Below, piece by piece: positions 51,933 to 55,713 of a DNA stretch of 64,000 bases. The notes beneath the pieces were generated by a model. The model saw only the letters and a list, made by a program, of their open reading frames with translations, made no database searches and was not told the origin of the DNA. The position numbers were made by a program, and so were the translations under genes. Source of the stretch: a virus; the IMG/VR virus record IMGVR_UViG_3300007609_000013, positions 1-64,000 of that record; one strand, 5' to 3'. Every line of letters starts with the position of its first letter. Within the stretch, counting starts at the first letter, position 1.

Positions 51933-52937
51933 ATGTACGTAGAAGATTACATAGATTTATTAGCAGGAAAGATTGCTTGCGAGCACTGCAACAACTATGA
52001 TATTGTAAAACTTGCAAAATACGATTATAGCCCTGTGAGAAATATTTCTCGAATTGTAGAATCTGACAGAGGACTGTCAGATCGCCAACGAGAACTTGCA
52101 ATAAAAATTGTGCATACCTATCGTCGTCAATTTGCCAAACACGGTTACGACTGTGAGCACGTTGTTGAAAATCCCAAATGGAGAAGTCCACTAAGAACAG
52201 TTGATAGAACCAAGCTGGTTTGTATCAAGGACCACAGGTTGACAGTTAAATTTCCATTTGAACCCACAATGGTAGACCATTTTAGAAATCTACAGAGATA
52301 TAGTTCAGAAAAATATCCTTGGATAGGCGAAATTGAGTGGAACAAAACTGAAAAACACTGGACTTTTTGTTTGACAGAACACAATATGCTGGGAATTTAC
52401 AACCTAACAAAAAATAAAAATTTTGAATATTGTAATAATTTTAACACTATCATAACTAAAATTTTAAAGGTCAAAAAAAGCAAAAACGCTTACCAAATAA
52501 TCTGTGACATTGTGGATGGAAAAATCAAAATACACAATGCCAGTGAAAGTCTGCAACAGTCATTTGATGCACAAGTCACAGGAGACTTGTTGCTGGATAT
52601 CGGGCTTGCCAAACGCTTAGGAGTAAACAAGTATAGTTTGTCTGTGTTAAGATATCTCCGCAAGAAAAATCCTTTGCTGGTAAAACTGGTGGCAAAAAGA
52701 GTTCTGTGGTTTAAAAAATCCAGTTCGTTGCATGAAATAAGTGCACTGGCAGACGATATAGGACTGTTGCCCATGGGGAATCACACACACTATGATCCTC
52801 CAAAATCTGTTTTTTTCAAAGAAACAATCTACGGATTGAAATCAAAATATCTTGAACAAAGGGTATCACTTGTGTTATACTGTACTCAATATGCGCCATG
52901 GGGTATTGAAGACGCATATTACTTGGAAGGTTATTAA
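51933..52937 (+). CDS. hypothetical protein
   Basis: LSDRQ..LA.KI...Y.RQ, P.WR.P.R.VD; coupled to the helicase gene. Confidence 0.65.
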   Translation: MYVEDYIDLLAGKIACEHCNNYDIVKLAKYDYSPVRNISRIVESDRGLSDRQRELAIKIVHTYRRQFAKHGYDCEHVVENPKWRSPLRTVDRTKLVCIKDHRLTVKFPFEPTMVDHFRNLQRYSSEKYPWIGEIEWNKTEKHWTFCLTEHNMLGIYNLTKNKNFEYCNNFNTIITKILKVKKSKNAYQIICDIVDGKIKIHNASESLQQSFDAQVTGDLLLDIGLAKRLGVNKYSLSVLRYLRKKNPLLVKLVAKRVLWFKKSSSLHEISALADDIGLLPMGNHTHYDPPKSVFFKETIYGLKSKYLEQRVSLVLYCTQYAPWGIEDAYYLEGY

Positions 52938-53962
52938 TGGCTACGGCAAAAATTATTGTCAAAGACGAAGTAAACTGTAAGATCGAAGGTCTCGATCTCA
53001 TGGATCGCAAAAAACTTGTGCAGAAGTTCAAGTATGAAGTTCCATATGCAAGACATTTGCCTGCTGTAAAGTTGGGTAGGTGGGACGGAAAAATAGCATT
53101 TTTTCAAATGGGCGGAAGCACATACATCAATCTATTGCCGGATATTTTGCCTTACTTGGACCAAGCTGGATATGATATTGAGCTAGAAGATTACAGAGAA
53201 TACAAAACAGATTTTGAGTTTGAAAAAATCACCGAGCACAGTTACAATGATAGAGTATGGCCGCCAAAGCATCCAGCAGAAGGCCAGCCTATTACACTGA
53301 GAGACTATCAAGTGGATGTGGTTAATAAATTTTTGCAAAATCCACAGAGTCTACAGGAAGTGTCAACAGGTGCCGGAAAAACCATTATGACTGCTGTGCT
53401 CAGCGACCAGTGCGAAAAGTATGGCAGAACAATTGTGATTGTGCCCAACAAGGATCTTGTGAGCCAAACAGAAGCTGATTACAAAAACATGGGACTGGAC
53501 GTTGGAGTGTTCTATGGAAGCAAAAAAGAGTTTGGCAAAACACACACAATCTGCACATGGCAAAGTTTAAACAGTTTGCTTAAAAAGACCAAAAACCAAG
53601 AAGCTCCTATCACAATTGGAGAGTTCTTAGAGGACGTGGTAGCAGTCATAGTGGATGAATGTTTTGATGGAGATACTCTTATTACTACGACTCGAGGCAA
53701 AACGCCTATTAAAAATTTGAAAGTAGGCGATAAAATAATAAATCTCTGCGAAAAAACAAAACAATATAAAGAAGATACCGTTGCCAAAGTTCATAAAAAT
53801 CTAACACACAGCGAAAGTGAAAAGATGTTAGAATTGGAATTTGACAACGGTATAAAAACTCAAGTCACTGCTAATCACAAATTTCTAACAAACAAAGGAT
53901 GGATTAGAGCAGACGAATTAACAGATAATTTAGAAATTATTGACATAAATACATACGGCTAA
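52937..53962 (+). CDS. uvsW: UvsW-like SF2 helicase N-extein (241 aa) + split intein IntN (100 aa)
   Basis: LRDYQ, TGAGKT, TWQS and VIVDE, followed by CFDGDT (block A) ... TANHKF (block B), then a stop. Confidence 0.92.
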   Translation: MATAKIIVKDEVNCKIEGLDLMDRKKLVQKFKYEVPYARHLPAVKLGRWDGKIAFFQMGGSTYINLLPDILPYLDQAGYDIELEDYREYKTDFEFEKITEHSYNDRVWPPKHPAEGQPITLRDYQVDVVNKFLQNPQSLQEVSTGAGKTIMTAVLSDQCEKYGRTIVIVPNKDLVSQTEADYKNMGLDVGVFYGSKKEFGKTHTICTWQSLNSLLKKTKNQEAPITIGEFLEDVVAVIVDECFDGDTLITTTRGKTPIKNLKVGDKIINLCEKTKQYKEDTVAKVHKNLTHSESEKMLELEFDNGIKTQVTANHKFLTNKGWIRADELTDNLEIIDINTYG

Positions 53963-53978
53963 AGGAGATGTATTTATG
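53944..53978 (+). promoter_or_regulatory. late promoter motif plus 11-bp hairpin covering the endonuclease start codon
   Basis: cataaatacat (53944-53954) / atgtatttatg (53968-53978); AAGGAG in the loop. Confidence 0.75.
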
Positions 53979-54884
53979 GCAAAGCAGTTCGATACGGAAC
54001 GATTTAATAGAATTTTGAGAGAACACAACCAACAACTTCGCGCAGAAAAAATAACTGGTAAGCAAGTTGTTTTATCAAATGGGCTTGTTTTAGATTTGAA
54101 AAAAGAAGTTGATCGTTGTAAAAAAAGAGTTTTGTCAGGACACGATATTTGGAAAAATAATTTCGATCAATTATATTCACTTGATCAACACAAAAGAATT
54201 TCTACAGAAGCAGAATGTAAAAGTTTAATATCAAAAATTGGAGGTATAAACTGTCAAAGAAAGCATGGCGAAAAAGTAAAGTTCAATTTGAATACCGGTA
54301 TTCCGTGGAATAAAGGAACCAAAGGAAATTACCCTTATTCTCATCAACATTCTAAACAGACCAAGGAAAAAATAAGTAATGCCAATCTTGGACAAAAAAA
54401 CGGAATGTTTGGCAAGAAACTCTCTGCAGAACAAAAAGCAGAAAAAAGTAAAAAAATGAAAGAATTAATTTTGTCAGGTAAATTTACTCCTAACTCCAAC
54501 AACAGAAACACTCATTGGGAATCTTTTTATAATAACAAAAAATATAGAAGTTCTTGGGAAGCATTGTATCAGTATTTGGACAATCAGGCAGAATACGAAA
54601 CGCTCAGAATTCCTTATATTTTTGACAATCAAAATTATGTTTACATTGTAGATTTTGTAAACCATGAAACTAAAACAGTAGTTGAAGTAAAACCACAAGA
54701 ACTTATTAATGACAAAAAAACACAGGCAAAAATATCTGCCGCAAAAAAATGGTGCAACGATAACGGATACGTATTTGTGTTAGCAGATAAGAATTATTTT
54801 ATTTCTCGTCCAATACCTAAGGATTTAACAGGGTTTGATATTAAAACTCAAAATAAAATTAGGAAAATTTATGAAATTGGTTAA
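53976..54884 (+). CDS. putative free-standing homing endonuclease (NUMOD3 repeats + TnsA/gp4-like PD-(D/E)XK domain)
   Basis: PWNKG, HSKQTKEKIS, GMFGKKLS; YRSSWE...IPY...YIVDF...VEVKP...K..AAK.WC. Confidence 0.85.
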   Translation: MAKQFDTERFNRILREHNQQLRAEKITGKQVVLSNGLVLDLKKEVDRCKKRVLSGHDIWKNNFDQLYSLDQHKRISTEAECKSLISKIGGINCQRKHGEKVKFNLNTGIPWNKGTKGNYPYSHQHSKQTKEKISNANLGQKNGMFGKKLSAEQKAEKSKKMKELILSGKFTPNSNNRNTHWESFYNNKKYRSSWEALYQYLDNQAEYETLRIPYIFDNQNYVYIVDFVNHETKTVVEVKPQELINDKKTQAKISAAKKWCNDNGYVFVLADKNYFISRPIPKDLTGFDIKTQNKIRKIYEIG

Positions 54885-55713
54885 CAAAAAAGAAATTGAA
54901 AAACCACAAGAAACATATAATTTGCACATAGAACAGGATCATAATTACATTGCAAATGATGCTGTAGTATCAAATTGCCACCAAGCCAAAGCAGATGCTC
55001 TAAAAACACTGCTCACAGGTGTGATGTCGCACATACCCATTAGATGGGGACTCACTGGCACAGTACCAAAGGAAGACTTTGAATTTGTGGGCATTAAAGT
55101 TTCTCTTGGAGATGTGATCAATCGTGTTGCAGCCAGCGATCTGCAAAGCAAAGGCGTGCTGGCAAACTGTCATGTTAATATTGTGCAAATGATTGATCAT
55201 GCCGAGTATCGCGATTATCAAAGTGAACAAAAATACTTGCTCACAGATGATGCCAGATTGGACTACATCAGCACACTTGTACAGGAAGTGAGAAACACAG
55301 GCAATACACTTATATTGGTAGACAGAATCAGCTCGGGCCAGGCACTGGTAGATAAAATACCAGGCGCGGTGTTTATATCTGGCGAAGTAAAAAGCGAACA
55401 ACGCAAAGAACACTATGATGAAATTGCAGACACACAGGACAAAGTGATTGTTGCCACATACGGAGTCGCTGCTGTTGGCATTAATATACCTCGCATCTTT
55501 AATCTTGTGCTTATTGAACCAGGCAAGAGTTTTGTTCGAGTGATTCAAAGCATAGGCAGAGGCGTAAGAAAAGCCAAGGACAAAGACTTTGTACAGATAT
55601 GGGATATCACCAGTACTTGCAAGTTTGCCAAGCGACATTTGACCAAACGAAAACAGTTTTACAAAGAAGCGAACTATCCATTTGCAATTGAAAAGGTAGA
55701 TTGGAAACTATGA
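54871..55713 (+). CDS. uvsW: split intein IntC (35 aa) + UvsW-like helicase C-extein (245 aa)
   Basis: MKLVNKKEI...TYNLHIEQDHNYIANDAVVSN|CHQAK; GLTGT, ATYG....GINI, QSIGRG.R. Confidence 0.92.
   Translation: MKLVNKKEIEKPQETYNLHIEQDHNYIANDAVVSNCHQAKADALKTLLTGVMSHIPIRWGLTGTVPKEDFEFVGIKVSLGDVINRVAASDLQSKGVLANCHVNIVQMIDHAEYRDYQSEQKYLLTDDARLDYISTLVQEVRNTGNTLILVDRISSGQALVDKIPGAVFISGEVKSEQRKEHYDEIADTQDKVIVATYGVAAVGINIPRIFNLVLIEPGKSFVRVIQSIGRGVRKAKDKDFVQIWDITSTCKFAKRHLTKRKQFYKEANYPFAIEKVDWKL

Follow-up and report, generated by a model that had tools for sequence, protein, structure and literature searches.

In a stretch of 64,000 nucleotides of viral DNA (positions 1 to 64,000 of the IMG/VR record IMGVR_UViG_3300007609_000013; hereafter the window), the gene for a UvsW-like helicase is fractured inside its DExH box (motif II). 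It is highly probable, given the comparisons set out below, that the class-1 split intein encoded here is functional and that the locus belongs with the fractured genes of Dassa et al. (2009), with protein trans-splicing that would join the two helicase halves. The virus fragment in the source record is 74 kb long and is estimated to be 21% complete. Three open reading frames (ORFs A, B and C) lie on one strand, each in its own frame, and they and their parts are laid out as follows (aa, amino acids; IntN and IntC, the N- and C-terminal intein halves; exteins, the flanking host segments).

52937-53962, plus strand: ORF A, helicase N-half followed by IntN, 341 aa.
52937-53659, plus strand: N-extein, the N-half of a UvsW-type superfamily 2 (SF2) helicase, 241 aa, with GAGKT at Walker A and motif II as far as VIVDE.
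53660-53962, plus strand: IntN, 100 aa and a TAA stop, with Cys1 and block B T-A-N-H.
53944-53978, plus strand: hairpin with an 11-bp perfect stem, from a folding computation.
53976-54884, plus strand: ORF B, a free-standing homing-endonuclease-like gene, 302 aa, in a frame different from that of ORF A; an N-terminal domain, a NUMOD3 region and a C-terminal PD-(D/E)xK nuclease.
54871 (ATG)-55713, plus strand: ORF C, IntC followed by the helicase C-half, 280 aa, in the third frame.
54871-54975, plus strand: IntC, 35 aa, running from MKLVNKKEI to DAVVSN, with blocks F and G and the terminal Asn.
54976-55713, plus strand: C-extein, 245 aa and a stop, starting CHQAK; Cys+1 and the His of the DExH box, then the rest of the helicase C-half.
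53660-54975, plus strand: the complete mobile insert (IntN, endonuclease gene and IntC), 1316 bp.

This layout agrees with a sequence-only reading of the stretch, which had placed a split intein inside motif II, at DE/CH (the slash marks the junction), with a free-standing endonuclease gene between its halves. ORF A carries the SF2 motifs up to VIVDE, which ends at residue 241, and then runs as IntN from CFDGDT through TANHKF to DINTYG before it stops, whereas IntC and the remaining helicase motifs are on a separate ORF that begins at the ATG at 54871, with an additional TTG upstream at 54835. The same reading had given IntN an acidic tail, and the last 50 aa indeed have a net charge of -5; the basic N-terminus that it had given IntC was only weakly apparent, with a net charge of +1 over the first 15 aa but of -2 over IntC as a whole.

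When residues 1-241 of ORF A were joined in silico to residues 36-280 of ORF C, the result was a 486-aa protein, the length that had been predicted for the rebuilt helicase. Alignment to intein-free relatives, proposed earlier as a check, showed that this spliced product is 92-96% identical to six uninterrupted 485-aa metagenome helicases, with zero gaps over 485 aa. In an alignment with T4 UvsW (PDB 2oca), the DECH of the T4 protein falls opposite N/CH of the query. Because of these two alignments, the insert can be placed at exactly 53660-54975, between the Glu and the x of DExH. The GC content falls from ~0.41 in the flanks to ~0.30 inside the insert.

Profile searches, a second check that had been suggested, identified both halves as intein sequences. 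IntN scored above the cut-offs of TIGR01445 (intein_Nterm; 29.9 bits, cut-off 24.5) and Pfam Hint (30.5 bits, cut-off 29.7), and IntC above that of TIGR01443 (intein_Cterm; 24.6 bits, cut-off 15.6). For comparison we used 49 alleles, the window included, drawn from an IMG/VR scan with IntN (47 related loci) and from the cultured phages S16 and PM2. All 49 showed the junction pattern DE/C ... T-[AG]-N-H ... [S/A/H/T]-N/CH, with Cys1, T-x-N-H, the D-H of block F, the terminal Asn and Cys+1 invariant, and the IntC pattern YNLH..DHNY..VV.N was conserved among them. The Cys that the sequence-only reading had named as the +1 nucleophile is thus present in 49 of 49 alleles.

These residues bear directly on the best surviving alternative, to which we give a slim chance, namely that the intein halves serve as a non-splicing clasp, docking the helicase fragments non-covalently into a heterodimer that would keep ~135 aa of intein inside motif II. 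A fractured phage gene that works without splicing does exist, i.e., nrdA/mobE of Aeh1, according to the summary in PMC3045599. Mere docking, however, would not need the catalytic residues, every one of which is invariant across the 49 alleles. In addition, Cys takes the place of the usual Val at position +1 in all of the intein-bearing alleles and almost nowhere else, a replacement that would make sense only if Cys+1 served as a nucleophile, and that therefore argues against a clasp.

The distribution of that Cys was followed in 160 intein-free alleles of the clade, in which motif II reads DEVH (152 alleles), DEAH (five), DETH (two) or DECH (one). The closest intein-free relative (P0035) is 95.7% identical to the spliced product and has the motif DEVH and no cassette. 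At the DNA level, the +1 codon was the only consistent difference, being GTA in empty sites and TGY in occupied sites. Since the intein-free alleles almost all have DEVH and the intein-bearing ones all have Cys+1, the alleles indicate that this Cys is not ancestral in the clade; it moves together with the intein, and the mature enzyme would be left with Cys in place of Val. The earlier statement that splicing would restore an intact DECH motif was therefore correct for the spliced product but not for the clade, whose norm is DEVH. The V-to-C change should be tolerated, because T4 UvsW is natively DECH.

The sole DECH among the intein-free alleles (L003:6001-7455) may be the footprint of a precise intein loss. 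A sign of co-conversion, sought as a clustering of differences at the junction, was unconvincing, with only three of the 21 residues that differ between the spliced product and P0035 lying nearby. Ten of the 21 fell within residues 92-129 of the N-extein (window 52937-53659), and this patch may be mosaic or recombinant. A metagenome scan for P0035 DNA returned only relatives of 75% identity or less.

A second alternative is that the locus is a decaying gene, i.e., that invasion by the endonuclease inactivated uvsW and that the pieces are pseudogene remnants. The helicase gene is interrupted, and UvsW is dispensable for the growth of T4 in the laboratory. All three ORFs are intact, however, and 40 loci with identities of 50-85% retain the same intact layout. 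Pairwise ratios of nonsynonymous to synonymous substitution (dN/dS, NG86 method) were 0.09 for IntN, 0.12 for IntC and 0.27 and 0.12 for the flanking extein segments, figures that are rough because dS is near saturation. The intein halves thus have ratios no higher than those of the exteins, a sign of purifying selection. Finally, the full-length N piece is found in more than 100 protein clusters. Taken together, these findings make decay very improbable.

The signals at the ORF boundaries are those of three separately translated genes. The IntN ORF ends in TAA, and 13 nt further on lies the endonuclease ATG with its own AAGGAG; the IntC ATG is preceded by AGGA and overlaps the 3' end of the endonuclease gene by 14 nt. 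IntN, endonuclease and IntC are on separate ORFs, mostly in three frames, in the 40 independent loci, which include S16 and PM2. Because this layout recurs in independent loci and in cultured phages, an assembly artefact is unlikely.

Loci that have lost the endonuclease were also found. In two of them (L097:376-1004 and L098), the endonuclease has shrunk to a 26-aa remnant and the intein is still split. In two others (L099:1754-2312 and L115), the endonuclease has been deleted, the IntN ORF continues into the C-terminal tail of the endonuclease, and the intein is again still split. In all four, IntC begins at its own Met in another frame. In L099 and L115 a stop lies four codons upstream of that same Met, which supports the IntC start codon at 54871. 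The persistence of the halves after decay of the endonuclease argues that both are needed, meaning trans-splicing.

It is hardly credible that the locus instead encodes a single polypeptide, i.e., a contiguous intein with a nested endonuclease, obscured by assembly frameshifts or read by programmed frameshifting: contiguous mini-intein alleles do exist at the site (L117-L121, L123, P0122, P0123 and P0125), but two frame changes would be required across the stop and start signals just described, the same frame pattern is seen in independent assemblies and cultured phages, and the endonuclease-less alleles are still split. The contiguous mini-inteins, six loci (e.g., L117:812-1234 and L120:242-664) and three P sequences, are ~134-145 aa long. 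Their linkers are mutually unrelated and P0123 retains the IntC start 'MKLV' in frame, which suggests independent re-fusion of split halves after loss of the endonuclease. The order of the split and contiguous forms could not be read from the intein tree because it is largely unresolved, with 15 of its 26 inner branches open.

The fold of the intein was modelled on a contiguous orthologue (L117:797-1249), with contiguous and half intein sequences aligned as the input. This orthologue is ~61% identical to the window in IntN and ~70% in the IntC region, and its model had a predicted local distance difference test score (pLDDT) of 87.3 and a predicted template modelling score of 0.84. In a Foldseek comparison with NpuDnaB, the NrdJ-1 split-intein fusion, gp41-1 and NpuDnaE, the template modelling (TM) scores were 0.74-0.86 and E values ~1e-8 to 1e-10, the best match being NpuDnaB (E 2.8e-10, TM 0.81/0.86). 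The lone low-confidence block of the model, residues 101-110 (pLDDT 62), corresponds to the split point of the intein in the window, and the loop that is split in the window is the canonical site for endonuclease insertion and splitting.

Several points weigh against a working split intein. The splicing step is read from sequence, and the activity and the target of the endonuclease are wholly inferred. The evidence for a HINT fold comes from the contiguous orthologue and not from the two chains of the window. The dS values behind the substitution ratios, 1.4-1.9, are close to saturation. Finally, the penultimate residue of IntC in the window is a non-canonical Ser instead of His. Npu DnaE likewise has Ser, as the sequence-only reading had observed, and Ser, Ala, Thr and His are all found at this position across the family. 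Consistent with this likeness, the best PDB matches of IntC were the IntC chains of Npu DnaE, which are weak matches (E 0.2-0.9), and the fused DnaE construct 5ol7 aligned to IntC through its C-terminal 'IAS'.

On balance we favour a working split intein, which would operate as follows. The cassette between the Glu and the x of the DExH box would give rise to three polypeptides of 341, 302 and 280 aa. IntN and IntC would come together in a single HINT fold, and class-1 protein trans-splicing would follow, in the order N-S acyl shift at Cys1, trans-thioesterification to Cys+1, cyclisation of the terminal Asn and S-N shift. Glu241 would thereby be joined to Cys242 in a 486-aa DECH helicase. No helicase activity would be expected before splicing, because the intein sits in the catalytic DExH box. 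The endonuclease would cut intein-free DEVH alleles in co-infecting phages, and repair would copy in the cassette together with the Cys+1 codon. Its translation would be limited by the hairpin over its Shine-Dalgarno sequence and ATG.

The host protein was clearly recognized as a helicase in searches of both halves. The N-half matched Pfam ResIII (8.5e-15) and DEAD (3.3e-7), as well as PHROG 16259 'DNA helicase' (8.7e-62), and the C-half matched Helicase_C (2.2e-8). Compared with T4 UvsW structures, the N-half gave E values of ~1e-5 (1rif and 2oca; 3.6e-5 for 2oca) and the C-half an E value of 3.1e-17 over residues 232-476 of 2oca. The nearest cultured homologues, at ~50% identity, are jumbo-phage genes annotated uvsW. 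Because the match of the N-half to UvsW_N was weak and below the cut-off (19.6 bits, cut-off 25.3), and because RadD and XPB models score on a par, the helicase of the window is, on these scores, best called UvsW-like rather than a proven UvsW orthologue.

The protein encoded by ORF B matched Pfam Tn7_TnsA-like_N (36.8 bits) and NUMOD3 (33.4 bits), both above the cut-offs, and gave a match below the cut-off to an NCBIfam model of the NUMOD-rich DNA-binding part of group-I-intron endonucleases. Across 17 homologues, E195, D226, H230, E237 and P240 are invariant and K239 is present in at least 90%; judged by this conservation, E...D...ExK is the classical PD-(D/E)xK signature. An AlphaFold model of the protein had a pLDDT of 82.8. 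Its C-domain (residues 179-297) resembled TnsA (Z 7.6), Vsr (Z 6.2) and I-Bth0305I (Z 5.8), hits of modest Z that came only from the VIA wide search. A Foldseek search of the full model against the PDB gave nothing at E<=0.001, and a phmmer search against PDB sequences gave chance matches only, with no match to 3R3P at E<=1. The endonuclease has 484 metagenome relatives, nearly all of them unnamed. Homologues of its C-terminal nuclease part (41-47% identity) also occur in many T4-like phages (H91-H110, e.g., NC_028820 and NC_019909), where they lie directly upstream of, or overlap, the large terminase gene, and some of them are annotated within terminase.

In the hairpin that spans the end of IntN and the start of the endonuclease gene, ATAAATA lies in the 5' arm, the IntN stop and AAGGAG in the loop, and the endonuclease ATG in the 3' arm. 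Its minimum free energy is -12.7 kcal/mol (z -3.0), and none of 200 shuffled sequences folded equally well. The same stem over the endonuclease ATG was predicted in 14 related loci, conservation that alone is no proof of function because the 5' arm is also IntN coding sequence. As predicted from this fold, the hairpin probably sequesters the Shine-Dalgarno sequence and the ATG.

Comparison with another metagenomic locus (L083) pointed to mobility of the cassette. The two are 85% identical in IntN, 69% in the endonuclease and 80% in IntC and its flank, whereas the host exteins are only 54% (N) and 65% (C) identical. With the cassette more similar between these loci than the host genes are, and with the nearest exteins being cassette-free, the cassette is patchily distributed and mobile as far as such comparisons can tell. 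Along with the GTA/TGY difference at the +1 codon, the closer similarity of the cassettes is indirect evidence that the endonuclease would cut the cassette-free allele site-specifically. No second intein match was found elsewhere in the 74-kb virus record, and none of 50,697 phage records matched the locus in a megablast search.

At the protein level, the allele is present in more than 100 metagenomic clusters with a full-length N piece and in PHROGs 16259 and 9690. Among cultured phages, it is carried by Salmonella phage S16 (L001; NC_020416, 104626-107352), its relatives STP4-a, SEA1 and CF-SP2, and Proteus phage PM2 (L002; NC_055727, 101056-103788). The pieces in S16 and PM2 are annotated as DNA helicase, hypothetical protein and DNA helicase, with the intein unannotated. 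These genes (gp114, gp114.1 and gp115 of S16; gp180-182 of PM2) share with the window the insertion at DE/CH, the split point and the endonuclease family, and are ~61% identical to it in IntN and 40% in the endonuclease. They differ in that their host is a true T4-type uvsW (Straboviridae), 23-27% identical to the helicase of the window, and in that the penultimate residue is His. S16 has, in addition, a separate homing endonuclease gene that lies directly upstream, flanked by inh and the gene for the helicase N-half; it occupies the inh-uvsW interval, which in T4 holds the GIY-YIG gene segE.

In three loci (L085:1629-4300, L108:1508-4167 and L121:1621-5155), the same helicase is fractured at Walker A as well. 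The first piece reaches GAGK and ends after a Cys and only ~27 aa more, and next comes an ORF of 381 aa that has a Vsr-like 'VEFNG..FH' motif. The middle piece opens with ~134 aa ending HHN/T, then returns to helicase sequence, and has the DE/CH IntN at its end. The Walker A intein of these three loci was not recognized by Pfam. From their ORF arrangement, these relatives seem to have natural helicases made of three pieces, whose assembly would call for two split inteins orthogonal to each other. Three further N-halves that end in the same IntN, i.e., P0121 and P0124 (715-717 aa) and P0061 (508 aa), carry another insert, a contiguous one, further upstream; in P0121 and P0124 it has a LAGLIDADG_3 domain, and in P0061 it is ~150 aa long. 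On the strength of these insertions, the UvsW-like helicase is an intein hot spot.

Across the relatives, every stage of an intein life cycle appears to have been kept, from the empty DEVH allele through the fractured gene with its endonuclease and the decayed endonuclease to the re-fused mini-intein and a possible DECH footprint. Intein gain, splitting and loss can thus be compared directly in one gene, from its empty, fractured, endonuclease-less and re-fused alleles. The host is a recombination and repair helicase, and the intein lies inside its catalytic box.

No description of a UvsW split intein was found in the searched literature. Thiel and colleagues reportedly presented in 2014 a split intein called 'VidaL T4Lh-1' from a T4-like helicase, a host that may be UvsW. 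The suggestion that the locus is a new example thus stood as regards the literature but not as regards the databases, since the allele is already deposited in GenBank (S16 and PM2), PHROGs and the protein clusters. The UvsW split intein is accordingly undescribed in the literature searched, follows a known fractured-gene arrangement and introduces no new principle.

Some of the fastest known protein-ligation tools are naturally split inteins from phage fractured genes, such as gp41-1 and NrdJ-1. A widespread family that is at most 28% identical to the solved split inteins and has a Cys+1 junction and a 35-aa IntC is a reasonable candidate for an orthogonal ligation pair. More tentatively, and with somewhat more doubt than confidence, we propose that the DE/CH family may be a trans-splicing pair that is fast, orthogonal and so far undescribed, with a canonical but unrecognised PD-(D/E)xK/NUMOD3 class of homing endonuclease driving it. 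The allele can be tested at the bench, since it is present in the cultured phages S16 and PM2.

The parallel that had been drawn with the fractured gp41, NrdJ and IMPDH genes holds. In the available part of Dassa et al. 2009 (PMC2677866), the hosts are the gp41 helicase, IMPDH, DnaE, NrdA, NrdJ, DNA ligase and terminase, with eight host types stated, and the fractured genes are gp41-1 to -8, NrdJ-1, IMPDH-1, NrdA-2, DnaE, ligase and terminase. As in the window, these loci have an N-half with IntN, a same-strand endonuclease ORF in an overlapping or abutting frame, and IntC with a C-half; they too are from phage and interrupt enzymes of DNA metabolism, a hairpin precedes the endonuclease ORF, and some of the loci have no endonuclease. 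Motif II of a UvsW-type SF2 helicase, the host site in the window, is absent from the host list in that part of the paper. The endonucleases are drawn there as GIY-YIG or Vsr-like/EDxHD, whereas that of the window, though similar in fold to Vsr and I-Bth0305I (Z ~6), has the canonical E...D...ExK and a TnsA-like Pfam signature.

With I-Bth0305I and the EDxHD enzymes (PMC3239194), the endonuclease of the window shares a NUMOD-type region N-terminal to a domain of the restriction-endonuclease fold, an association with fractured genes and the structural match noted above. It differs in having no evident EDxHD motif (the general-base His and second Asp) and in keeping ExK (E237 and K239). T4 SegE, a free-standing GIY-YIG endonuclease encoded between inh and uvsW, targets uvsW (PMC2988022), and so shares with the locus in the window the use of uvsW as a recurrent target of phage homing endonucleases. 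SegE belongs to another nuclease family, however, and its gene lies beside and not inside uvsW and has no intein (PMC2988022). With the split intein of Npu DnaE, the intein of the window shares the class-1 residues, halves of ~100 aa (IntN) and 35 aa (IntC), the canonical split loop, the penultimate Ser and Cys+1. The two differ in sequence, Npu DnaE being ~21% identical to the window-type intein, and in arrangement, as the genes for the DnaE halves are widely separated and no endonuclease gene lies between them.

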